Source of the DNA: a virus
Lineage: Duplodnaviria > Caudoviricetes
Direction: 5' to 3' (one strand)
Length of the DNA: 64,000 bases
Virus record (IMG/VR): IMGVR_UViG_3300002026_000146
Span: 6,919-70,918 of that record
In this document: one piece after another, positions 21,622-62,896 of the stretch
Layout of the letters: each line of letters starts with the position of its first letter
Numbering within the stretch: the stretch's first letter is position 1
Translations under genes and position numbers: made by a program
Notes under the pieces: model-generated
The model's database searches: none
Seen by the model: the letters and a program-made list of their open reading frames with translations, nothing else
Told to the model about the DNA's origin: nothing

Positions 21622-22125
21622 TTAGCTGACTTGAACTTCGGAGACGCGGCTGTCAATCGTGTACTGGACACGAACGCGAACCTTGCCCGCAGTGGCCGTG
21701 GCAGTTACGCCAGCGGTCGTCATGCGGATGTTGTTACCAGCAGCGTTGGAGGCCAACACTTTGGTCAACAGCAAAGGCGTACGCGAACCGACCAGGGCAG
21801 CGTCCAAGTCGAACGCGGACAGGTAGCAGGCGGTGTCGCCAGCAATGCCCAGGTTCAACGTAGCGCCAGCGCCGATGCCGACGAAGGCTTGCTCGACGAT
21901 CACTTCGCCGCCGATGATTACCGCGCCGACAGGCAACGGTACGCAGTCGAAGACCACGCCGGTACCGGCGGTCAGGCCAGCTTCAGCAGGATCAATCGAG
22001 TTGGCGGGGGTAGACCCGAAGGTCTTCTTCACGCCGTCTACGGCGTCGATGGCCCACTCATTGAAGCTGAAGATGAATTCAGCGATGAGGGGGAACTGGG
22101 CAGAGCGAGATGCTAGTTTTTTCAT
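21622..22125 (-). CDS. Putative capsid decoration protein
   Basis: 167 aa beta-rich ORF immediately downstream of the major capsid gene. Confidence 0.55.
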   Translation of the reverse strand: MKKLASRSAQFPLIAEFIFSFNEWAIDAVDGVKKTFGSTPANSIDPAEAGLTAGTGVVFDCVPLPVGAVIIGGEVIVEQAFVGIGAGATLNLGIAGDTACYLSAFDLDAALVGSRTPLLLTKVLASNAAGNNIRMTTAGVTATATAGKVRVRVQYTIDSRVSEVQVS

Positions 22126-22130
22126 GATGG

Positions 22131-22148
22131 TCTTTCTTAGACGTTAGA
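22131..22148 (-). promoter_or_regulatory. 18-bp motif copy
   Basis: TCTAACGTCTAAGAAAGA, 5 nt before ATG 22125. Confidence 0.65.
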
Positions 22149-22152
22149 TTGC

Positions 22153-23298
22153 TTATTGAGCAACGTAGCAAGAAATCACACCAAAATCTTCGACGGCATT
22201 GCCTTCGTAGATGTTGCTGAACTTAGGCTTCAGGAAGCCCAGCATCTTGCCGACGCTGATGGACTGGCTGTTGCCGAAGTCATCTTCGTCTTCTTCCCAG
22301 TAGGGAGCGTCGATGTCAGCCATACCCAGAGCCTGAGCACCACAGAACAGAACCTGCGAACCCAAGAGGTTCAGGCCAGCGCCGTACATGTTGGTACCAG
22401 AGATACCGCCGGTGCAGTTAGGCACATGGCGGAACTCATGCAGCGTGATGCCGTCAACGGTCACAGCGTCGCCGCTGAACAGTTTGGCATTGGTGCCGGA
22501 GTTCTGCGAGTAGCGCAAGTTCTGCAGGTAGGTTGGGTCGAGCTTCAGGCGGCTCATCGCTTGTGGCGTGAGGAATGCATGGAAGTTCTCAGAACCACCA
22601 TCACCACCAACACCGCGCATGTAGCGGTCCTTGGCGTAAGCCTTCAGCTGGATGAACATCTCCCAGGCTGGGAAGTCCGACGTGGCAGCAGCGCCCGTGT
22701 TGACAACGGAGCCGGAGGTGTTACCACCAGTGGCGCTTGTCTTCAGGGTCTTGTTCACGTTGTCCCAGCGAGTCATACGACGAGTCGAAGGCGGGGTCAC
22801 ATCAGCAGCGAACTCCAAATACTGGAGGTCAGAGCCGACGCGGGTCGAGCCGTTGGGCTTGTACGCATAGCTCACACCGCCCAAGGTCTGGAACGCCATC
22901 TGGTCAATGCGGTCAGCAAGCCAGTAGCTCAACAGGTTCTTGGAGTTGTCGCGGAAGCTGAACACAGACTTCTGCTCTGCCATGCGGCCTTCATGCCGAT
23001 TGGCATGGCGCAGCTGGTCGTAGCGGATGACCTGTTCGAAGGTTTGCATACCTTCTTCGTTACCCTTCAGGGTGCGGTCCCCTGCGATACCGTCGCCGAG
23101 CAAGTCAGCAAGCAGGGTGATCACAGCGCGTGTGCCCTTGGTACCTTTGGTGAGTTCGGTCACATGGTTAATCATGGAGCCGTTGCTGGAGCCGAGGAAC
23201 TGAGAAGTAAAGCTCTTGTTGCGAGCATTCTTCCAGAGGTCCATACCCCAGATCGTTTTTTGTTCGTTGGTCAATAGACCAAGGTTGGTTAAAGCCAT
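22153..23298 (-). CDS. Major capsid protein, N4 gp56-like
   Basis: MALTNLGLLTNEQKTIWGMDLW; GDGIAGDRTLKGNEE; DQLRHA. AAGGAG RBS before the ATG at 23298. Confidence 0.85.
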   Translation of the reverse strand: MALTNLGLLTNEQKTIWGMDLWKNARNKSFTSQFLGSSNGSMINHVTELTKGTKGTRAVITLLADLLGDGIAGDRTLKGNEEGMQTFEQVIRYDQLRHANRHEGRMAEQKSVFSFRDNSKNLLSYWLADRIDQMAFQTLGGVSYAYKPNGSTRVGSDLQYLEFAADVTPPSTRRMTRWDNVNKTLKTSATGGNTSGSVVNTGAAATSDFPAWEMFIQLKAYAKDRYMRGVGGDGGSENFHAFLTPQAMSRLKLDPTYLQNLRYSQNSGTNAKLFSGDAVTVDGITLHEFRHVPNCTGGISGTNMYGAGLNLLGSQVLFCGAQALGMADIDAPYWEEDEDDFGNSQSISVGKMLGFLKPKFSNIYEGNAVEDFGVISCYVAQ

Positions 23299-23429
23299 TT
23301 GATGGCTCCTTTCGTCGAGTTGAAGACACTGATCACTTGGCATTGCTGCCCCGCGTCGTGTGTCGTCACGACTGACGAAATTGGAGGTGTTGTCGTAACC
23401 TACCTAAACCGATAGCCGAAATATATCAC

Positions 23430-23450
23430 ACGTCTAAGTTAGACGTAAGA
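23430..23450 (-). promoter_or_regulatory. 18-bp motif copy within a perfect 17-bp palindrome upstream of the capsid gene
   Basis: ACGTCTAAGTTAGACGT at 23430-23446. Confidence 0.65.
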
Positions 23451-23891
23451 TTATTTTTTGTGTGTAACCGAGGCAACCCCGTTGATTTTCTCGGCGGTGC
23501 GTAACCCACCGAGACCCAGCATTCCGAGGAGCACCGGCATCATCTCGCTGATGTCCGCAGGAGCGATGTTGAGTTCGTGACCGTAGTAGGCGGCGACAAA
23601 GAGCGCGATCTTCAGGCCGATCCAGTTCCAGCCGCAGGCGAGCACGCACGCCCAACCGATAGCGGGACGCCACCCGCTGACGAACAGACTCGGGCTTTTG
23701 GCCTCCTCCGCATTGATCACAAGCTGGCCCTTGGCCAGCTCAGTCTCAGCCGCGAGCTGTGCCAGCTCACCGGACTGCTGCAACTTGAACAGCTCCAGCT
23801 TGGCCGCATCGCGCTGTGCGGGGTCAGGCCAGAGTTTGTCGATTACCTTAGAGCCGACTTCGAGTAGTGCTGTGACAGGGTCGAGGGCCAT
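23451..23891 (-). CDS. Holin, GTA 3TM-type
   Basis: IDKLWPDP...AEEAKSPSLFVSGWRPAIGW motif, C-terminal LGMLGLGGLRT. Confidence 0.8.
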   Translation of the reverse strand: MALDPVTALLEVGSKVIDKLWPDPAQRDAAKLELFKLQQSGELAQLAAETELAKGQLVINAEEAKSPSLFVSGWRPAIGWACVLACGWNWIGLKIALFVAAYYGHELNIAPADISEMMPVLLGMLGLGGLRTAEKINGVASVTHKK

Positions 23892-23892
23892 C

Positions 23893-24024
23893 TTAGGCTC
23901 CCAGCGATTTGACCAACAGAAAGATTCCGATGACGACAGCGGCGATAAACACCTGCTTCTTCACACCGGCGATGATGTCCTGCTTCATCGCCTGTTTGCG
24001 TTTGCGGTCGATATAAGTGCTCAT
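23893..24024 (-). CDS. Small membrane protein, 43 aa
   Basis: Manual translation MSTYIDRKRKQAMKQDIIAGVKKQVFIAAVVIGIFLLVKSLGA; not in track. Confidence 0.55.
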   Translation of the reverse strand: MSTYIDRKRKQAMKQDIIAGVKKQVFIAAVVIGIFLLVKSLGA

Positions 24025-24033
24025 GATTTCTCC

Positions 24034-24570
24034 TTATGTAGCCAAGACCTTCTTGGCGATTTCCCAAAGCTTACAGCGTTCGGCGTAGCCGTTCAGCCCG
24101 CCGTTCACCCGTTTTGTGATGGTCTGGAATTTGCCGAGGTCAGCCAACTCATTGAGTCCACTTTTCTTCCAGAACCAACCAGCACTGCGGGACGCATTTA
24201 TGGGTGTCTCAAGCAGCTCCGGGTGCTCTAACAGCGGCAACCCAAGAGCGTCGCCTGTGGCGGCGTAGTTGAACCGCCCGGTGGTCTGGATCAACCCGCG
24301 ACCCTTAAACTTCTTGCCGTCGCCCAGCACCACGTTGCCCAAGTCCTTACGGCCCTCATAGCGCTGCTGCGTGGGCGTCGGCCCCCAAATTTCCCGCGTG
24401 TACCGAAGCCCGCCCGACTCGTGCCCGATCTGTGCCAAGAACGCAGCCTGGCGGCCAGGCGAGTCGATGTCGTATTCAGCCATCGCTGCTGTGACGGGGG
24501 CAAGGAACTGAGCTGCCCTGACCGGGTTCGCCCCGGTACACGTGGCTAAGTTAATCGCGTTCATGGTCAC
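24034..24570 (-). CDS. Endolysin, glycoside hydrolase family 19
   Basis: AAFLAQIGHESGGL..TRE; FKGRGLIQTTGRFNY; ITKRVNGGLNG. Confidence 0.9.
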   Translation of the reverse strand: MTMNAINLATCTGANPVRAAQFLAPVTAAMAEYDIDSPGRQAAFLAQIGHESGGLRYTREIWGPTPTQQRYEGRKDLGNVVLGDGKKFKGRGLIQTTGRFNYAATGDALGLPLLEHPELLETPINASRSAGWFWKKSGLNELADLGKFQTITKRVNGGLNGYAERCKLWEIAKKVLAT

Positions 24571-24679
24571 GCTCCGTGATCGTCAGATAGATACCGATCA
24601 CGCCGACGCTCACCACCGTGATGATCGTAAACAGCGTGAACAAGCTGAAGTCAAAAAACGCAAGGAAGGCTGAGTTCAT
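24551..24679 (-). CDS. Small membrane protein, 42 aa
   Basis: Manual translation MNSAFLAFFDFSLFTLFTIITVVSVGVIGIYLTITERDHERD; stop overlaps the endolysin start. Confidence 0.5.
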   Translation of the reverse strand: MNSAFLAFFDFSLFTLFTIITVVSVGVIGIYLTITERDHERD

Positions 24680-24813
24680 ATATGCCCCGCGAACGCCGCG
24701 AACAGCACAAAGATAAAAAATATGAAGCCGATAACCGCGTACACGAGCACGTCAGCCCCGCTGGTCTCTTCATCCTCAACAACGTGAGTCTTCAATTCAT
24801 AGTCGTCATTCAT
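24676..24813 (-). CDS. Small membrane protein, 45 aa
   Basis: MNDDYELK...VLVYAVIGFIFFIFVLFAAFAGHI; coupled overlaps on both sides. Confidence 0.55.
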   Translation of the reverse strand: MNDDYELKTHVVEDEETSGADVLVYAVIGFIFFIFVLFAAFAGHI

Positions 24814-25279
24814 AGCGTTTCTCCAAAGGTACAAGCCATTTATTGAGCAGGGCGACAAGTACCGGCAGCGTTGCGGCGGTCTTGAAAACAAAGTCGTCGA
24901 GGTAGATCGAGCCGAACATGAGTTGAGCCTCGGAGGGTGCCCAGCCGGTGCGCATGACGATGACAGGGATGTGTCGACCCAGCACCGCTTTAATGTATTT
25001 AGCGCAGTCTATGCCTGCGGACTCTGTCTCCATCACAGAGTCGAGAAACATCAGATCGATACTCCTGTCCAGCTCCACGATCTTCTGTGCCTCCGCGCCC
25101 GTGTAGGCGCTGATGAACCTCATGGGCCGATTCAGCACCACGACTGTCTTGAGGGCTGTCTTCGTCACTGTATGTACTTCAGGTTCATCGTCGACGAGCA
25201 GGATCGTCCACGGCTTGCGCGTGTCGGCCGCAACCTCGGCGTCGTCGTCGTCAATAAAGAAATCGTCCTCATCGATCAT
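24806..25279 (-). CDS. Stand-alone response regulator receiver (CheY-like) protein, 157 aa
   Basis: Start revised to MIDEDDFF at 25279; ILLVDDE, LMFLDSVME, VMRTG and FVFKT motifs. Confidence 0.85.
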   Translation of the reverse strand: MIDEDDFFIDDDDAEVAADTRKPWTILLVDDEPEVHTVTKTALKTVVVLNRPMRFISAYTGAEAQKIVELDRSIDLMFLDSVMETESAGIDCAKYIKAVLGRHIPVIVMRTGWAPSEAQLMFGSIYLDDFVFKTAATLPVLVALLNKWLVPLEKRYE

Positions 25280-25446
25280 GGGTGTTTTATCTCTATTAAT
25301 TTGTCGTGCGCAGCGATGGTCGCTTCGAGCTGCCCGACAATCGTGAACGCCATCGCGCTCATCGTGGTGCCCGGCTTCAGGCTGGAGCGGATGAGTAGGC
25401 GTAGCATGACTACCGTTTCGGCGATGAGGTTTCTGGAAATAGTCAT
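25276..25446 (-). CDS. Hypothetical protein, 56 aa
   Basis: MTISRNLIAE...; 4-nt overlap with the receiver gene. Confidence 0.5.
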   Translation of the reverse strand: MTISRNLIAETVVMLRLLIRSSLKPGTTMSAMAFTIVGQLEATIAAHDKLIEIKHP

Positions 25447-25946
25447 CAGAACCTCTCGATGGAGCCTTCGTTGTCGACCACATTGAAGCAAACGTCAGGC
25501 GTGCGCATTTCGAATTGGGTCTGGCTCCAGTCGGGCCACCAGATGTATCTCGTCTCCAAGCACCACCTCCCCTGCATCATCCCGGGCAGAGCCGTGACGG
25601 AGGACACGGTGAATTCGCCGAGCAGCGAGTTGAACATCCCGCTCTCAAGCAGCACTGACTTGGCCGGGTCTTTCTCGATGTACATCCTGCGCACTGCGTT
25701 GATGGACGTCTCGGAGTTACCCTTAAAGACCCGGGTCTCGAACAGGGCAGTCGCGTTGGCGTAGGGAACTTGGTGGACCAACAGGTCGGTGTTGAGCAAC
25801 TCGATTGGTTTGGGTGAGTAGTAAGACTTGTAGATCGTGAAGGTTAACAGCCAGAACGCGAGGGCGGTCACGATCTGGGCCAGCACCACGATTGCTCTGT
25901 GCTCGTGTTTTGGAGGGCGGAGGAAGTTCGCAAGACTCGTGATCAT
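25446..25946 (-). CDS. Membrane-anchored protein with a probable periplasmic beta domain, 166 aa
   Basis: Start MITSLANF at 25946; one TM helix; WC...C pair. Confidence 0.6.
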   Translation of the reverse strand: MITSLANFLRPPKHEHRAIVVLAQIVTALAFWLLTFTIYKSYYSPKPIELLNTDLLVHQVPYANATALFETRVFKGNSETSINAVRRMYIEKDPAKSVLLESGMFNSLLGEFTVSSVTALPGMMQGRWCLETRYIWWPDWSQTQFEMRTPDVCFNVVDNEGSIERF

Positions 25947-26488
25947 TGTGGTTTTTCCTTGGTTGGTTCGGATGTGACCTTCTGCGGCACGTCCCTCACC
26001 CACATACCGAACTGCGTGGACAGCCCGAGCGCCAGCAACCCGATGATGAAACCAATCGCAGAGATCACGGCACTCGTCACCGCCGTTTTGATAATCCCGT
26101 TTCGTATGTCTTCCCAAAGGGCCTTGCGTGACTTGCGGGCTGCAAGGTCATCCTCCAGAACGACGTGTGAATCAAGGTGCTTCTTCGGACTCTTGTCTGG
26201 GATCGCACGAAGCACCTCCTCTTTGAAAAAGCTCAAGTCCGAGTGCACACCCGCGACTCCTTTGGTGACCTCAGCAATGTCGTTCCTTAACCCATCGACA
26301 TCCAGCTTGACCGAGGCGACGTCCTTCTGCACTGTGGCGACATCGTGCTGCACAGCGTTGACGCTGAGCTGCACAGCACTGATGTCTTCACTTAGCGCGC
26401 TGGTGTCGTCCTTACCCGATCTGAGGGCGTCACGAATCCACTGGTCACTGGCGCGGCGCTCCTTCTGAGGTTCGGTCGACTCGGTCAT
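25943..26488 (-). CDS. Coiled-coil protein with a C-terminal TM helix
   Basis: Heptad VQ.DV..V repeats; AVISAIGFIIGLLALGL. Confidence 0.65.
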   Translation of the reverse strand: MTESTEPQKERRASDQWIRDALRSGKDDTSALSEDISAVQLSVNAVQHDVATVQKDVASVKLDVDGLRNDIAEVTKGVAGVHSDLSFFKEEVLRAIPDKSPKKHLDSHVVLEDDLAARKSRKALWEDIRNGIIKTAVTSAVISAIGFIIGLLALGLSTQFGMWVRDVPQKVTSEPTKEKPQ

Positions 26489-26496
26489 GCTGGCTC

Positions 26497-27456
26497 CTAG
26501 AGAATGTCGCCGCGCATACGTGCGAGGGCTTCGGGGTTGCTGTCAGAAAACTTCCTGAACTCCGCCTGACTCATGTTCATGATCGCCGCTGCCTCACTGG
26601 CGGCAGCGCCGTACTTGTCATGATCCTGGCCGGAGCGGTTGAGGCTCGGAGGTGACTTCGTGACAGCTTTAGCTGTCTTGTCCACAGCCGCTGCCTTGCG
26701 CTCCGAGGCCACGTCCTTTTCTGTGACCCTGGGGGTTGTGTTCGTAGCGATCTCCTGCTTCGTGGTGCGTGGGGCGACGAGCGCTTTGACAGCCTTCTGC
26801 AGAGCGACCGTAGGCGTAAAGCCCTTCATCTGATAAGCGTCCTTCAGCTCGGCGACCTCGGACATGGTCTCCTCGTTGTAGTCGTCGGAGTCTGGATTCA
26901 GTTCTGGGTAGGCGTTCTCGATGCGCTCCAGAGTCGTCGCGTAGCGGGTGTTCTCCACGGCGCGTATCTCAGCGGCGTGAATCTTCATGTCGCTCTTGGA
27001 TTCATTCATGTCGCGCTCGGCGCGGCGAATCTTGGACATCAGCTCACCCGCCTTGTCCAACTCCCCTTCAACCAACAGGGCGCGGTACTCCGCGTCCATC
27101 TTGGCGATGGAGTCTTCGGCGGCGGTGATCTGACTGTTGACGTCAGCCACCTGCTTGCCGTTCTGGTACTGAGCCAGCTGGCGCTCCAAGTCGGCGCGCT
27201 TCTCGCGCTCCTTCTCCAGAATCTCTTTGTGTCGGGCAGCCGGGATACGGGTGTCCTTGGACTTCTCCTTATCTTCGGACTCCGTCTTCTCCGCGTCTAA
27301 CTTAGATGTTAGATCAGCGGCGACTTTTTCGGCGTCTGGTTTCTCGGGGTCCGGGACCTTCTCTTCTTCGAGGACGTCGCCGCGCTCGAAGGGAGTTGGG
27401 CCGGAACCAGAGTCACCGGGTTCGGGTGCGAGCAGTAGGTAGTGCTTGAGGTTCAT
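26497..27456 (-). CDS. Capsid scaffolding protein
   Basis: Acidic coiled coil, IPAARHKE motif, position between portal and capsid. Confidence 0.7.
   Translation of the reverse strand: MNLKHYLLLAPEPGDSGSGPTPFERGDVLEEEKVPDPEKPDAEKVAADLTSKLDAEKTESEDKEKSKDTRIPAARHKEILEKEREKRADLERQLAQYQNGKQVADVNSQITAAEDSIAKMDAEYRALLVEGELDKAGELMSKIRRAERDMNESKSDMKIHAAEIRAVENTRYATTLERIENAYPELNPDSDDYNEETMSEVAELKDAYQMKGFTPTVALQKAVKALVAPRTTKQEIATNTTPRVTEKDVASERKAAAVDKTAKAVTKSPPSLNRSGQDHDKYGAAASEAAAIMNMSQAEFRKFSDSNPEALARMRGDIL
27296..27313 (-). promoter_or_regulatory. 18-bp motif copy inside the scaffold CDS
   Basis: TCTAACATCTAAGTTAGA, a perfect consensus match. Confidence 0.55.
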
Positions 27457-27465
27457 GGTGGGCTT

Positions 27466-27708
27466 TCAGGGGTTAAGTAAGATGGTCCAGTCTTCGGCCA
27501 ATATGTCTGTCTGACTTGCGAGCCACGGCACGCGAGCGCCGGGGGTGTTGACGGCGTCGGTCGGATAGTTCAGGTAGAGGTAAGGCAGGGTCATCTTGCT
27601 GTGCGCATCAGGACGCTGCAGCTCCACCCACATGCCTTTGCCGTTCCAACCGGAGCGGCCTGCCTTGCTGCCCAGCTTCAGGGCTTCTAGTGCTTGTCCG
27701 AAGTTCAT
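27466..27708 (-). CDS. tad2: DUF2829 protein, Tad2-like signal sponge
   Basis: MNFGQALEALK.G.K..RSGWNGKGM...WLASQTDILAEDW. Confidence 0.8.
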   Translation of the reverse strand: MNFGQALEALKLGSKAGRSGWNGKGMWVELQRPDAHSKMTLPYLYLNYPTDAVNTPGARVPWLASQTDILAEDWTILLNP

Positions 27709-28031
27709 ACCGCCCCTTTGTGCATGCGCTCTTTGAGCAAGTACCCCTCAAGCGCCCAAATCTTCTCGCGGGCGTTGGTGTAGGCGATCTTCTGGCCGAG
27801 TGCGCGGTCGAAGTTTTCTTTGCTGGCGCAGGCACTCTCGCCGGTCACGGTGAAGCCGTTCTTCAGCTTCAGGCAGCAGATGGTCACGACGTCAAAAATA
27901 ATGACGTAGTCGACTGCGACGATGGTGGCGTCGATGTCGGCTGGAGTCAGGCGTGGGGCGGTGAGGCCCTTCTCCTGAATCTCTGCTTCGATGCCCGCTT
28001 CACAAGTTCGCGGGGAAGTAATGTTGTTCAT
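27705..28031 (-). CDS. tad1: N4 gp49/Sf6 gp66 family protein, Tad1-like signal sponge
   Basis: LKNGFTVTGESACASKENFD...G..IA...A.EKIWALEGY. Confidence 0.75.
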   Translation of the reverse strand: MNNITSPRTCEAGIEAEIQEKGLTAPRLTPADIDATIVAVDYVIIFDVVTICCLKLKNGFTVTGESACASKENFDRALGQKIAYTNAREKIWALEGYLLKERMHKGAV

Positions 28032-28042
28032 GGGTAGTGCTT

Positions 28043-28060
28043 TCTAAGTTAGACCTACGA
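28043..28060 (-). promoter_or_regulatory. 18-bp motif copy upstream of the tad1-like gene
   Basis: TCGTAGGTCTAACTTAGA, 11 nt before ATG 28031. Confidence 0.55.
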
Positions 28061-30283
28061 TTTCGATGTAGGCAGACGCGAGCGGTTCGGCACTTGGGTT
28101 TTGCTGTTGCTCGGGGGTTTAGCTGCAGCGGCTGCTGCAGCCTGGGTTGCTGCGACGCGAGCGTCGATGCGCTTCTGCTGCAGGTCGCGCTCTTTCAGCT
28201 GAATGTCAGCGTCGAGTTTTTCGCGCTCCAGCTGGTGCTCGCGCTCCTTGAGGCTCATCTCCTGCTGGGCCATCTGCTCGTCGATGCTCATCTTGTGCTC
28301 GGCGACTTGGGCCTTGACCTGAACCTCAGCCATCTTCGCCTGACCAGAGCCGTCGTCCGGCTCGCCCTGCTCGATGACCTGGGCCTTGGCATGTGTCTCT
28401 CGGGTCTTGGCATCTTTGAGTTGTGAGTCGGCACCCTTGACGGCGGCTTCGCTGCGCAGCTTGTCGAGTTCTGCCTGCATGGTCTCCAACTGAATGCGCT
28501 GCTGTTCCTGCGCCTCGGGACTCTGGCTGGCCTCCTTCATCTGGCGGATGATCTCTTTCTTGTTCAGCAAGCGGCTGGCGTCGATCAGCACAGTGTCTGG
28601 AACCATGATCCCGGCTTCTTTCAGGGCCATGGCCTGCTCGAACTGGGAGTCTTCGAGGGTTTCGCGGTGCGGCACGCTTGTGACGACCACGTCGTACTCG
28701 CCCAAGGTCAGGTCGTTAAGGATTTCTTGGTAGGGGTTCTCTTCAGCCTCCTCGCCGGTCTCTGCCTCGGGGTTGGGCTGGTTGACTGTGAACGTCTCTG
28801 CCTCACCCGTGGCGTGATCGTGGGTGATCGTCATCATCCGTTCTTCGGTGTAAAACTCCTGAACCAAGTCAAGGATATTTCGAGCAAGGATCGCGTCGCT
28901 GCGCGTGAGGTTGTCCAGTGGTTTGACGAGATTTGTAGAACCCGCTTTTTGCTTCGCCTGGATTGCTTTCGCCGCAACATCAGCTCTGTCCATGCCCTGC
29001 ATCGAGTCGGATATACCAGAGATCGTCTTAATCGACTCCTCGGCTTTGTACGAGATACGGTCGAGTCCTTGCGGAACTTGATTAGGAGCAATCTTCTGGA
29101 CATCTTTGTCTGGGTCTCCATTGACTTCGATGACCAGGCCGGTCTGAGCGCCCTTGTCTTCGAGTTCTTCCACGGTCATGTTGGACAGTGCGCCCGCCTT
29201 GACCTTGTAGCCAGAGTTGGCCGTGGTGTTTACGACATGGAGTTCCTGACTCGTGACCTTGTTAAGCAGCTCTTGAGGTCCGAGTAGGTTCTCAACAAGA
29301 CCGATGGTGGTTCCACGGCGGAAGTGCGGAAAATACGGTACGACGGTAAAGTGCTGGTAAGGAGACCAATCATCGTGGAGGACGATGTTGTCGGCGACCA
29401 CAGTCCAACGAATGCGACGTACCAGTTTAGGAACAACTTGGAAGCCGTATTTTTCAACGAAGAAAGCAATGCGGTCACGGTTAAATTCCTCGGGGATGGG
29501 GCGCATGTCGCCGGTCTGTGGTGCCAGGAAGTGTTTCTGGCGGTCGAGCACGCGGTACTGGCGCTCAATGACGCGGATGTTGCGCATGGCGCTCGTGTCC
29601 TGCAGTCCCTGCACGTAGGCAGCGTTGCGCGGGTCACCAAAGCGGTCGCGGTTGATGGAAAGTGAGTCGTGGGCGTAGGTCAGAGAGGAGCCGACCTTCT
29701 GCTGGAGGATTTCCGCGTCGGCCTTGTTGTACAAGACCGCGATGTCGTCGCTGGTGAGCCACTTTGTCGTGTGAACCTCGCTCCACTTGTCCGGGTCGTA
29801 TTCCTCGGCGTCCGGGTCGATGATCACGTTCTTCGGATTGATGTTTTCGATACGAACCTCGCCCTCCATCGAGTCGCCGTACTCCAGACGGACGTCCAGA
29901 AATCCACGGGAGCCGATGATTCCGTCGGCAAACATGTCCGAGCGCTTCCAATCGAGATGATTGTTGTCGCTGATCTGCTTAAACACCTTGTTGAGCACGT
30001 CGGCGGTCGTGGCCGGCGCGCCGGAGCGTGGCCGGAAGCTGATTTCTGCCCGGTTGTTGATCTGCTCACCCATCACGTTGGAGACGGTGGACAAAATCTT
30101 GTTGACCGTTATGACTGGGCGGCGCTGGGCCTCTAGTTTGGCCCGGTCGCTCGGTGCCCACTGGTTGCCCGCGAAGAACTGCTCGCATTTATCGACCTTC
30201 TCGACGTACTTGCTGTGCCCGTGGTCACGGGCGTAGGCGAAGCGGTTCCAAATTTTCGTGGCGAGTTCAGTATTGACGGGCAT
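28055..30283 (-). CDS. Portal protein, podovirus type
   Basis: 742 aa; PVITVNKILSTV, GQINNRAEISFRP pattern, long helical C-terminal barrel; downstream of terL. Confidence 0.85.
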   Translation of the reverse strand: MPVNTELATKIWNRFAYARDHGHSKYVEKVDKCEQFFAGNQWAPSDRAKLEAQRRPVITVNKILSTVSNVMGEQINNRAEISFRPRSGAPATTADVLNKVFKQISDNNHLDWKRSDMFADGIIGSRGFLDVRLEYGDSMEGEVRIENINPKNVIIDPDAEEYDPDKWSEVHTTKWLTSDDIAVLYNKADAEILQQKVGSSLTYAHDSLSINRDRFGDPRNAAYVQGLQDTSAMRNIRVIERQYRVLDRQKHFLAPQTGDMRPIPEEFNRDRIAFFVEKYGFQVVPKLVRRIRWTVVADNIVLHDDWSPYQHFTVVPYFPHFRRGTTIGLVENLLGPQELLNKVTSQELHVVNTTANSGYKVKAGALSNMTVEELEDKGAQTGLVIEVNGDPDKDVQKIAPNQVPQGLDRISYKAEESIKTISGISDSMQGMDRADVAAKAIQAKQKAGSTNLVKPLDNLTRSDAILARNILDLVQEFYTEERMMTITHDHATGEAETFTVNQPNPEAETGEEAEENPYQEILNDLTLGEYDVVVTSVPHRETLEDSQFEQAMALKEAGIMVPDTVLIDASRLLNKKEIIRQMKEASQSPEAQEQQRIQLETMQAELDKLRSEAAVKGADSQLKDAKTRETHAKAQVIEQGEPDDGSGQAKMAEVQVKAQVAEHKMSIDEQMAQQEMSLKEREHQLEREKLDADIQLKERDLQQKRIDARVAATQAAAAAAAKPPSNSKTQVPNRSRLPTSKS

Positions 30284-30290
30284 AGGTGAC

Positions 30291-30650
30291 CTACTTCAGA
30301 AATTTCAGCTTATAGAGCGTCTGAGCGGTCAGCTCCTCCAGCTCGGCGAGGATGTTCAGTAGTGCCTGGCTTCCGTGTTCGTCCTCTTTCGCCTCCTCCC
30401 GCACCAGCGCGAGGTAGTCGTCTATCAATTCGACCGGGTCGTCGTATTCGAGGGGTTTGACGTTGGGGTACTTCGGGATTTTTCCTTCGATCCCTGTGTA
30501 GACCTCGGCGTACTTGTCGATGAGGGTCACGAGGGCTTCATAGAAGCCGTCCAAGGCCATGTGCTGCGCGTACGAGCGACTGGCGAGGTGTGCAAGGTGC
30601 GCGGCGGTGCGCACGGCGAGGGTCTGGGAGATGAATTCTGGGCAGGACAT
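30291..30650 (-). CDS. Ferritin/Dps-like four-helix protein
   Basis: AHLAHL...SYAQHMALDGFYE...DKYAEVY...NILAELEE...TLYKL. Confidence 0.6.
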   Translation of the reverse strand: MSCPEFISQTLAVRTAAHLAHLASRSYAQHMALDGFYEALVTLIDKYAEVYTGIEGKIPKYPNVKPLEYDDPVELIDDYLALVREEAKEDEHGSQALLNILAELEELTAQTLYKLKFLK

Positions 30651-61363: not shown

Positions 61364-61662
61364 CCATCTCCATCGTCCTCACTGCAGAACAGGCAGCTGC
61401 GTTTCTGCAAGTTCACAAATCAACTGTCCAAGCACTGGCCCGTTCGGGCGCACTACCCGCACGCAAGATCGGCCGTGAGTGGCGTTTCCTCGAATCGGAA
61501 TTGCTATGTCACTTTACAAGAAACCAGACAGCGACGTCTGGTGGCTCAGCATCACCCACAACGGCGGGCGGGTACGTGAGTCGACTGGAGAGCGCGTTAA
61601 AGCAGCGGCGCAAAGAGTCCATGACCTCCGCAAAGCGGACCTTCACCGCCAGCCCGTCCTGA
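61360..61662 (+). CDS. xis: Excisionase-family HTH protein
   Basis: LTAEQAAAFLQVHKSTV..LARSG.LPARKIGREWRF. Confidence 0.8.
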   Translation: MTISIVLTAEQAAAFLQVHKSTVQALARSGALPARKIGREWRFLESELLCHFTRNQTATSGGSASPTTAGGYVSRLESALKQRRKESMTSAKRTFTASPS

Positions 61663-62498
61663 AGGGCAAGAAGTGGAGCGACGCGGTTGACCGCTGGCTG
61701 ACCGTGAAGAACCCGTCAGCCGACGAGATCGCCAGCATGATCCACTTCGGCCGACACTACCCTGACCGCCTGCTGACGAGTGTGACCGCCGACTCCATCG
61801 ACAAGGCCATCAGCCGCATGACTGGTGTGCCCACCACATACAACCGCCACCGTGCGCGGATCAGTGGTGTGCTGCACCTGAACAAGATGAACATTGATCT
61901 GGACAAACGTGCCGAGGGTATCAAGCCCGAGCGCATGTGGCTGCGCCCAGATCAGTGTGCCAAACTGATCGCCGAGTTGCCTGCCCATCAGAAGCTGTGG
62001 GTGCGCTTCGCTGTGGCCACCGGCCTGCGTCAAGCCAACCAGTTCAAGCTGACTTGGGACAAGGTCGACTTCGAGCGCAAGTATTGCTGGATTGAGCGGG
62101 ACACCGCCAAGGGCAAGAAGTCATTCACCGTACCACTCAACAAGGAAGCCATAGATGTACTCACGACCGTACTCGGGGACCACCCTCAGTTCTGCTTTAC
62201 GTTCAAGGGCAAACCGATCAGCGAGATCAAGACCGCCTTTCAAAAGGCGTGTGTCCGAGCAGGATTGGGAACAGTTGCAATCGACGAAGAAGGCCACCGT
62301 AGTTATGACGGCTTTGTTTGGCACGGACTCCGGCACACCTGGGCTACCTGGCATGTACAGGCCGGGACGCCACTTGACGTCCTCCAAAAGCTAGGAGCTT
62401 GGTCGGACTACCGGATGGTGCTGATCTATGCCCACCACGCGCCGAGCTATCTGGCTGGGTTCGTGGACAACGTGACACCAAAGGATGATGAAGAATGA
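61506..62498 (+). CDS. int: Tyrosine integrase
   Basis: TGLRQAN (R), HGLRH (HxxR), LGAWS, IYAH (Y); start MSLYKK. Confidence 0.92.
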   Translation: MSLYKKPDSDVWWLSITHNGGRVRESTGERVKAAAQRVHDLRKADLHRQPVLKGKKWSDAVDRWLTVKNPSADEIASMIHFGRHYPDRLLTSVTADSIDKAISRMTGVPTTYNRHRARISGVLHLNKMNIDLDKRAEGIKPERMWLRPDQCAKLIAELPAHQKLWVRFAVATGLRQANQFKLTWDKVDFERKYCWIERDTAKGKKSFTVPLNKEAIDVLTTVLGDHPQFCFTFKGKPISEIKTAFQKACVRAGLGTVAIDEEGHRSYDGFVWHGLRHTWATWHVQAGTPLDVLQKLGAWSDYRMVLIYAHHAPSYLAGFVDNVTPKDDEE

Positions 62499-62803: not shown

Positions 62804-62853
62804 TGGTGGGCAGTACAAGTTTCGAACTTGTGACCCCTGCAGTGTGAATGCAG
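62804..62853 (-). mobile_element. attP core: 3' 50 nt of tRNA-Val(CAC)
   Basis: Minus strand CTGCA-TTCACAC-TGCAG GGGTC ACAAG-TTCGAAA-CTTGT ACTGCCC-A-CCA; no D arm or 5' half. Confidence 0.85.
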
Positions 62854-62896
62854 ATGCCCAGTCTCGGAAGCTCCTATCCATGCGGGTTTCAGCGCA

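Follow-up and report, generated by a model that had tools for sequence, protein, structure and literature searches.

A stand-alone response-regulator receiver in the variable scaffold-to-capsid lysis cassette of a KPP25-related phage

Introduction

The DUF3369 domain is GAF-like and characteristic of regulators with a REC-DUF3369-HD-GYP layout. These make up the 'RpfY family', which is exemplified by V. cholerae VCA0210 and D. vulgaris DVU0722; the V. cholerae member hydrolyses both c-di-GMP and cGAMP (bioRxiv 10.1101/2021.11.05.467447; PMC4212101). Among phages, stand-alone CheY-like proteins have been annotated in Alteromonas phages V22 (gp30, 149 aa) and A5 (gp11, 147 aa), where they lie beside the tail-fibre module. 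No function was assigned to them, and the gene was called a class II auxiliary gene without functional data (PMC7289586; PMC10579305). Small phage proteins, such as PIT4 of a Pseudomonas phage, are known to inhibit host two-component systems (PMC10714779). Bare receiver domains in phage genomes have so far been annotated and never explained.

Here we analyse a phage-borne receiver that offers a clean test case: it is intact, it is the only signalling domain of its genome, it belongs to a definable receiver subfamily whose members in cells control cyclic-dinucleotide enzymes, and it sits in a lysis cassette that can be swapped as a unit.

Results

A complete phage genome encodes an intact single-domain receiver

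The window (the whole stretch of DNA analysed, 64,000 nt) comprises bases 6919-70918 of a 70,918-bp IMG/VR record that was rated complete by CheckV. The closest isolates are the Pseudomonas phages KPP25 and phiR18 (genus Kochitakasuvirus), with 52% capsid identity. Late genes lie on the minus strand in the order small and large terminase, DUF5856 protein, portal, gp49/66-family protein, small phrog_1048/872 protein, scaffold, cassette and major capsid protein. The DUF5856 protein (30291-30650; phrog_858, annotated as 'starvation-inducible transcriptional regulator') is found two genes downstream of the large terminase and directly before the portal, and window 27466-28031 holds a pair of small accessory genes: a member of the gp49/66 family (phrog_322) and a gene that matches phrog_1048/872. 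The window also contains:

61479-62498: tyrosine integrase
62804-62879: complete tRNA-Val(CAC), on the strand opposite to the integrase, near the record end

The tyrosine integrase and the tRNA-Val next to it identify the phage as temperate; the position of the tRNA may correspond to the site of attachment or to a junction with the host. Among the relatives, two carry a provirus classification. A search of 401 sampled genomes from a single class (taken as Gammaproteobacteria) and of four chosen genomes did not recover the capsid protein.

The gene under study has the following position:

24806..25279, minus strand: stand-alone receiver (REC) gene, 157 aa, with ATG at 25279 and TGA at 24808-24806; identified by Pfam, residues and an AlphaFold2 (AF2) model

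From the letters alone, the initial annotation had read this 157-aa ORF as a CheY-like receiver, and the reading held: all four motifs are present (VDDE, with D30, D31 and E32; FLDSVME, with D80; RTG, with T111; FKT, with K133), the Pfam score lies above the cut-off, and the modelled fold is that of a receiver. Pfam Response_reg (PF00072) covered residues 26-135 with an E-value of 7.7e-08 and 32.9 bits, a narrow margin over the curated cut-off of 30.2 bits. A six-frame search of the 70,918-bp record found Response_reg (33 bits) at this locus only, and NCBIfam returned only partial matches, to the receiver part of CpxR, PhoB and PleD-type models. When the profile of the receiver and its nearest homologue was aligned with the solved CpxR receiver, D80 fell on the CpxR phospho-acceptor Asp. 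The aromatic switch position is occupied by F130, three residues N-terminal of K133. Spacings from D30/D31 to D80, T111 and K133 in turn are 49, 31 and 22 residues, close to those of CheY, in which the same residues are spaced by 44, 30 and 22. K133 is followed by T134 and not by the Pro of the usual K-P cis-peptide criterion; since K-T, K-S or K-N is common to the whole REC-DUF3369 subfamily at this position, T134 is a subfamily trait and not a sign of decay.

The AF2 model, built on a 74-sequence alignment (mean pLDDT 90.7, pTM 0.83), showed five strands (residues 24-29, 53-58, 76-80, 106-111 and 129-132) alternating with five helices in the order expected for a receiver, that is, a (beta-alpha)5 fold. 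This domain is preceded by an acidic disordered tail (residues 1-22), in which 9 of 15 residues at the N-terminus are acidic and model confidence is low, and the protein stops at helix 5, which is long (138-156). Foldseek comparison of the model with the PDB yielded 455 matches at E<=0.001, the top ones being all receivers (MicA, CheY, CpxR, Sln1 and GacS D1; target-normalised TM 0.75-0.88).

The 157-aa start was taken as right, since the homologues open with that acidic motif too. A longer frame of 225 aa was rejected, as it would run across two upstream genes. The idea that truncation of a multidomain gene left this ORF behind was rejected as well: traces of DUF3369, GGDEF or a kinase are missing from every frame of the record, and the homologues end at the same point, with a conserved K-W-L helix end. 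Profiles of HATPase_c, HisKA, Hpt, DUF3369 (PF11849) and GGDEF (PF00990) gave no match in the whole 70,918-bp record, so that the original remark on the window, that it encodes neither an output domain for the receiver nor a kinase, is true of the entire record. With PADLOC, neither the receiver nor the genes around it had a match in defence or anti-defence. The receiver protein was identical on two independent contigs. These results confirm, well beyond what chance would give, that the gene encodes a genuine, intact single-domain response-regulator receiver; to judge from its intact residue set, the protein should be phosphorylatable.

The receiver gene is chained into a lysis cassette

The receiver gene is the fourth of nine genes that together fill the interval between the scaffold-position gene and the major capsid gene. 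In the direction of reading, the features are:

26497..27456, minus strand: scaffold-position protein, conserved upstream flank, 41-70% identical in relatives
23414..26505, minus strand: whole 3.1-kb cassette segment of nine genes, in the variable scaffold-to-capsid slot
25943..26488, minus strand: 181-aa protein with a coiled coil and a C-terminal membrane helix, first cassette gene
25446..25946, minus strand: 166-aa protein with an N-terminal membrane helix, ORFan
25276..25446, minus strand: 56-aa ORF without a family match, its stop overlapping the receiver start (ATGA)
24676..24813, minus strand: 45-aa single-helix membrane ORF, overlapping the receiver stop by 8 nt
24551..24679, minus strand: 42-aa single-helix membrane ORF, with an ATGA overlap with the 45-aa ORF and its end overlapping the endolysin start
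24034..24570, minus strand: GH19-type endolysin, 178 aa (Glyco_hydro_19; phrog_181, E 1.9e-62)
23893..24024, minus strand: 43-aa membrane ORF, between endolysin and holin
23451..23891, minus strand: three-TM holin, 146 aa (GTA_holin_3TM, E 2.2e-24; phrog_3427)
23447-23429: terminator-like hairpin closing the cassette (folding z = -2.2)
22153..23343, minus strand: major capsid protein, conserved downstream flank

In the sequence itself, each gene from the 181-aa ORF down to the endolysin is linked to the next by an overlap of stop and start codons. Translational coupling of the receiver upstream of endolysin and holin had been proposed in the initial annotation; the coupling is borne out by the ATGA and 8-nt overlaps, which continue to the endolysin, and the gene order needs correction, the 45- and 42-aa membrane ORFs lying between receiver and endolysin. 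No promoter-like site was found in 22000-28200. It is natural to infer that the receiver is made late, its co-expression with the morphogenesis and lysis genes being predicted. A recognisable spanin pair, lipobox-bearing ORF or antiholin was not found in the cassette (23451-26488). The 181-aa protein had no relatives in phage records, and the 166-aa protein had none in phage records, IMG/VR or an index of 5.8 billion proteins.

The scaffold-to-capsid slot is a recombination hot spot in related phages

The capsid protein was used to scan IMG/VR, and the best 80 loci (63-97% identity) of 307 confirmed related stretches were compared by tblastn with all cassette proteins. No receiver was found in these best 80 of 307 loci, nor did their slots hold any homologue of the 181-, 166-, 56-, 45-, 42- and 43-aa ORFs; among the cassette proteins, only holin or endolysin gave a few distant matches. 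Twenty related records searched from end to end, 14 of them with a completeness of at least 90%, likewise had no Response_reg match. The gap between scaffold and capsid genes ranged from 94 to 3287 nt in relatives. Where the slot is filled, it holds non-orthologous lysis genes, namely endolysins (phrog_7, phrog_315 and Phage_lysozyme type), Rz-like spanins and holins, and also cargo unrelated to lysis, namely HNH endonucleases, a sigma-70 factor, a GDSL-type hydrolase and a gp49/66 protein. Two of these were located as follows:

L121:8935-9789: complete sigma-70 factor in a relative's slot
L154:1994-3619: GDSL-type hydrolase (GDSL lipase) in a relative's slot

The closest relative, L084, shares 82-85% nucleotide identity with the phage in portal and capsid and has 66 nt in place of window 23414-26505. 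It is also without the genes of window 27467-28037, its portal being followed directly by the scaffold; this is a second indel, between portal and scaffold.

These results show that the slot is a recombination hot spot with hypervariable cargo in the KPP25-related group, and that the receiver is strain- or lineage-specific accessory cargo and not a conserved part of the group's lysis machinery. Absence from related phages had been named beforehand, in the initial annotation, as evidence against its proposal, and absence is what the 80 loci and the 20 genomes gave. This weakens the view that the receiver is integral to the lysis machinery of the group; missing from all known relatives, it is therefore dispensable for this phage type.

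The receiver falls in a stand-alone group next to REC-DUF3369 receivers

A word-indexed search of 5.8 billion proteins returned a single relative of the receiver (P0003, 149 aa, 47% identity). An exhaustive HMM search, with the profile of the receiver and its nearest homologue as query, gave 4607 cluster representatives at E<=0.001, of which 3117 had E<1e-10, overwhelming support beside the narrow Pfam margin. The best matches were stand-alone proteins of 130-170 aa; next came hundreds of multidomain proteins, whose N-terminal receiver aligned from about residue 3, acidic tail included. Nearly all proteins among the matches listed in the metagenome scan and in the genome scan (at least 600 each) were multidomain. 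DUF3369 (PF11849) was present in 28 of the 60 nearest multidomain matches, HATPase_c in 26, HisKA in 24, Hpt in 8, GGDEF in 7 and HD_5 in 4. Structural neighbours of the receiver in the ESM Atlas were DUF3369 clusters of Pseudomonadota, and matches on plasmids and chromids in a plasmid collection were annotated as DUF3369 proteins or response regulators. All three lines uphold the likeness to proteobacterial DUF3369-linked receivers that had been noticed at the outset. The outputs of REC-DUF3369 proteins in Pseudomonadota are HD-GYP phosphodiesterases, GGDEF cyclases and hybrid kinases.

Maximum-likelihood trees of the receiver region were inferred by 'quick' searches on about 140-150 columns, with long branches. 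In the first, 22 stand-alone receivers including the phage one lay on one side (SH-aLRT 95), and 21 did so in the second (SH-aLRT 98). Every sampled multidomain receiver was separated from the stand-alone group by a long supported branch in both trees, and the stand-alone receivers themselves had long end branches. Three short proteins placed among the multidomain receivers are probably fragments. The receiver is thus placed in a rare, fast-evolving group of stand-alone proteins whose sister is formed by the N-terminal receivers of REC-DUF3369 proteins from Pseudomonadota. About 20 metagenomic singletons together with the phage receiver define an undescribed stand-alone branch. Given the long, well-supported branch to the multidomain receivers, any capture from a host would be old and not recent. 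The initial proposal of a captured host domain thus fails as worded: the closest known proteins are at most about 45-50% identical to the phage receiver, and it sits in a separate stand-alone group.

Ten stand-alone homologues that we looked up were each a singleton cluster on a metagenome contig (570-8719 bp). In 400 sampled genomes of one class, taken to be Gammaproteobacteria, this receiver type occurred in 25, with 48 matches. All except one of the matches (47/48) lay in open frames of at least 313 aa, the exception being a short frame near a contig end; the stand-alone form is therefore unusual in cellular genomes. The rarity of the stand-alone group in cells fits a mobile-element family, without proving one. 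IMG/VR scans with a two-sequence receiver profile or with P0011 alone gave no match, and tblastn of the receiver and P0004 against 50,697 phage records gave none either. The scan with a 20-sequence receiver profile gave one unrelated REC-LytTR regulator on a P2-like element. This 377-aa protein (L003:3783-4916) adjoins the portal gene of a P2-like contig, with terminase and GPO scaffold alongside, and is an unrelated phage-borne response regulator.

Conservation within the group was assessed in 20 members that are 33-47% identical to the phage receiver. Residues W24, D30, D31, H36, D80, M83, G89, P105, I107, G112 and K133 were invariant. The phospho-chemistry residues were invariant or at least 90% conserved in the group, with Ser at T111 in several members and Ile in one. 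Such conservation points to selection on the phospho-chemistry of the stand-alone group. In helix 1, H36, T39 and L43 were at least 90% conserved across stand-alone and multidomain members together. Conserved surface features of the group's own were seen at both ends of the protein: an acidic D-x-L-x-F motif at the N-terminus and, at the C-terminus, the K-W-L of helix 5. The acidic stretch D-x-L-x-F-x-D-E ahead of the receiver fold, predicted to be disordered, is conserved in both stand-alone and REC-DUF3369 proteins and may serve the receiver subfamily in docking.

Candidate functions of the receiver

A phosphate sink for host two-component or c-di-GMP pathways and a tie between lysis timing and host state, both floated in the initial annotation, are speculative. 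The best explanation, which we put forward tentatively and which may well prove wrong, is that the receiver is a phospho-acceptor and, late in infection, a competitor in host His-Asp signalling. With neither kinase nor Hpt in the phage, any phosphoryl group must be supplied by the host, through a kinase or a phosphotransferase, or by small-molecule donors. Partner specificity of receivers normally resides in helix 1. Because H36, T39 and L43 are shared with cellular receivers, the phage receiver may be able to dock to phosphodonors of the kind that serve the cellular REC-DUF3369 regulators. Once docked to host phosphodonors of the REC-DUF3369 class, it would drain or compete for phosphoryl groups as a decoy or sink, or would bind a target only when phosphorylated; late infection would in this way be coupled to, or perturb, host His-Asp and cyclic-dinucleotide signalling. 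We infer the phosphorylation of the receiver, its host partner and its physiological effect. Against docking to a phosphodonor, the conservation of helix 1 could come instead from constraints of the fold or from intramolecular constraints, and against a signalling role, late expression gives little time for a benefit to the phage.

Ranked second, and on balance unlikely, is a regulator of lysis timing: the receiver, given its phosphoryl group by acetyl phosphate or a host kinase depending on the state of the cell, would bind a membrane protein of the cassette (holin, 181-aa protein, 166-aa protein or one of the small TM peptides) and delay or trigger holin firing. Its surroundings speak for such a role, as it sits among ORFan membrane proteins and an endolysin-holin pair with start/stop overlaps throughout, in a nine-gene block that acts as one insertion relative to L084; moreover, with no recognisable spanin or antiholin, the membrane ORFs may have lysis roles of their own. 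However, the same slot in relatives holds complete alternative lysis cassettes without a receiver, and it gathers non-lysis cargo as well, so that position alone says little.

The receiver fold might also work without phosphorylation, as an adaptor or decoy that titrates a host kinase, the partner of a protease adaptor, or a component of defence or signalling; we rank this third and consider it doubtful. Single-domain receivers acting through protein binding are well established in CheY, DivK and CpdR. The surface peculiar to the group (the D-x-L-x-F motif and the K-W-L of helix 5) would suit a binder, and the accessory genes at 27466-28031 are also inserted relative to L084, so the region collects host-interaction cargo. 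What weighs against a phosphorylation-independent binder is that the phosphorylation residues stay invariant or nearly so in about 20 very divergent members, and that PADLOC gave no defence-related match.

In fourth place, and improbable, is a neutral passenger that was carried in when a lysis cassette recombined and that does nothing for the phage. Its uniqueness among 80 related loci and 20 related genomes and its location in a recombination hot spot of 94 to 3287 nt are consistent with this, but the intact frame, the full set of catalytic residues, the tight packing of the genes and the identical protein on two independent contigs are not what a passenger would lead one to expect.

A cREC-type enzyme processing cyclic-phosphate nucleotides in phage NAD/ADP-ribose conflict systems was rejected as very improbable and is largely refuted: cREC domains occur in phages and the receiver has a weak Pfam cREC_REC match (PF20274; E 9e-04, 20.3 bits), but that score is below the 27-bit cut-off, covers the model only in part and is exceeded by Response_reg, no NAD- or ADP-ribose-processing gene adjoins the receiver, and its nearest relatives are fused to HisKA, HATPase and Hpt, whereas cREC by definition never occurs in histidine-kinase two-component architectures (PMC7824862).

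Discussion

What is distinctive about this phage receiver is its place in a sister subfamily to the REC-DUF3369 receivers, its location in a lysis cassette and its membership of an undescribed stand-alone branch. In a bolder reading, the roughly 20 long-branched stand-alone receivers, the phage one included, would form an ancient phage or mobile-element family derived from the REC-DUF3369 lineage. As mimics of the host receivers that gate turnover of c-di-GMP or 3'3'-cGAMP, they would rewire cyclic-dinucleotide levels by late interception of phosphodonors, whether for counter-defence or to control dispersal; alternatively, they would set a lysis clock gated by phosphorylation. We regard this proposal as a long shot. 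If mimicry of host receivers were true, it would be the first worked example of a phage hijacking two-component signalling with a bare receiver. Phosphorylation by a host kinase, together with an effect on lysis timing or nucleotide signalling, would amount to a new route of host takeover; an inert receiver would illustrate the build-up of passenger genes in the scaffold-to-capsid hot spot of KPP25-like phages.

Compared with known systems, the phage receiver resembles CheY, DivK, Spo0F, CpdR and the phosphate-sink CheYs in being receiver-only, with a complete phosphorylation site and the aromatic switch. It differs from CheY, DivK, Spo0F and CpdR in that it lies in no chemotaxis or phosphorelay operon, has no cognate kinase gene nearby and shares only about 20% identity with them. 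With V22 gp30 and A5 gp11 it has in common a single domain of about 150 aa encoded in a part of the genome, late or structural, that phages swap as a module, and its fold is akin to that of an Alteromonas phage example in BFVD (A0A6C0R1B8; TM 0.67-0.70, 21% identity in the structural alignment). A few further stand-alone receivers in BFVD come from uncultured phages. The V22 and A5 proteins, in contrast, adjoin tail-fibre genes and not lysis genes and show no kinship with the phage receiver by tblastn, which looks like independent acquisition.

The closest likeness in detail is to the receivers of REC-DUF3369 proteins. Shared features are the acidic D-x-L-x-F-x-D-E extension, the W before strand 1, the DD pair, H36 and T39 in helix 1, the LLD-x-VME acceptor motif, R-T-G, and a K followed by T or S and not by P. 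Unlike those proteins, the phage receiver has no DUF3369 and no HD-GYP, GGDEF or kinase output, and it is phage-borne. It is therefore not a member of the REC-DUF3369 signalling proteins but only kin of their receiver domain.
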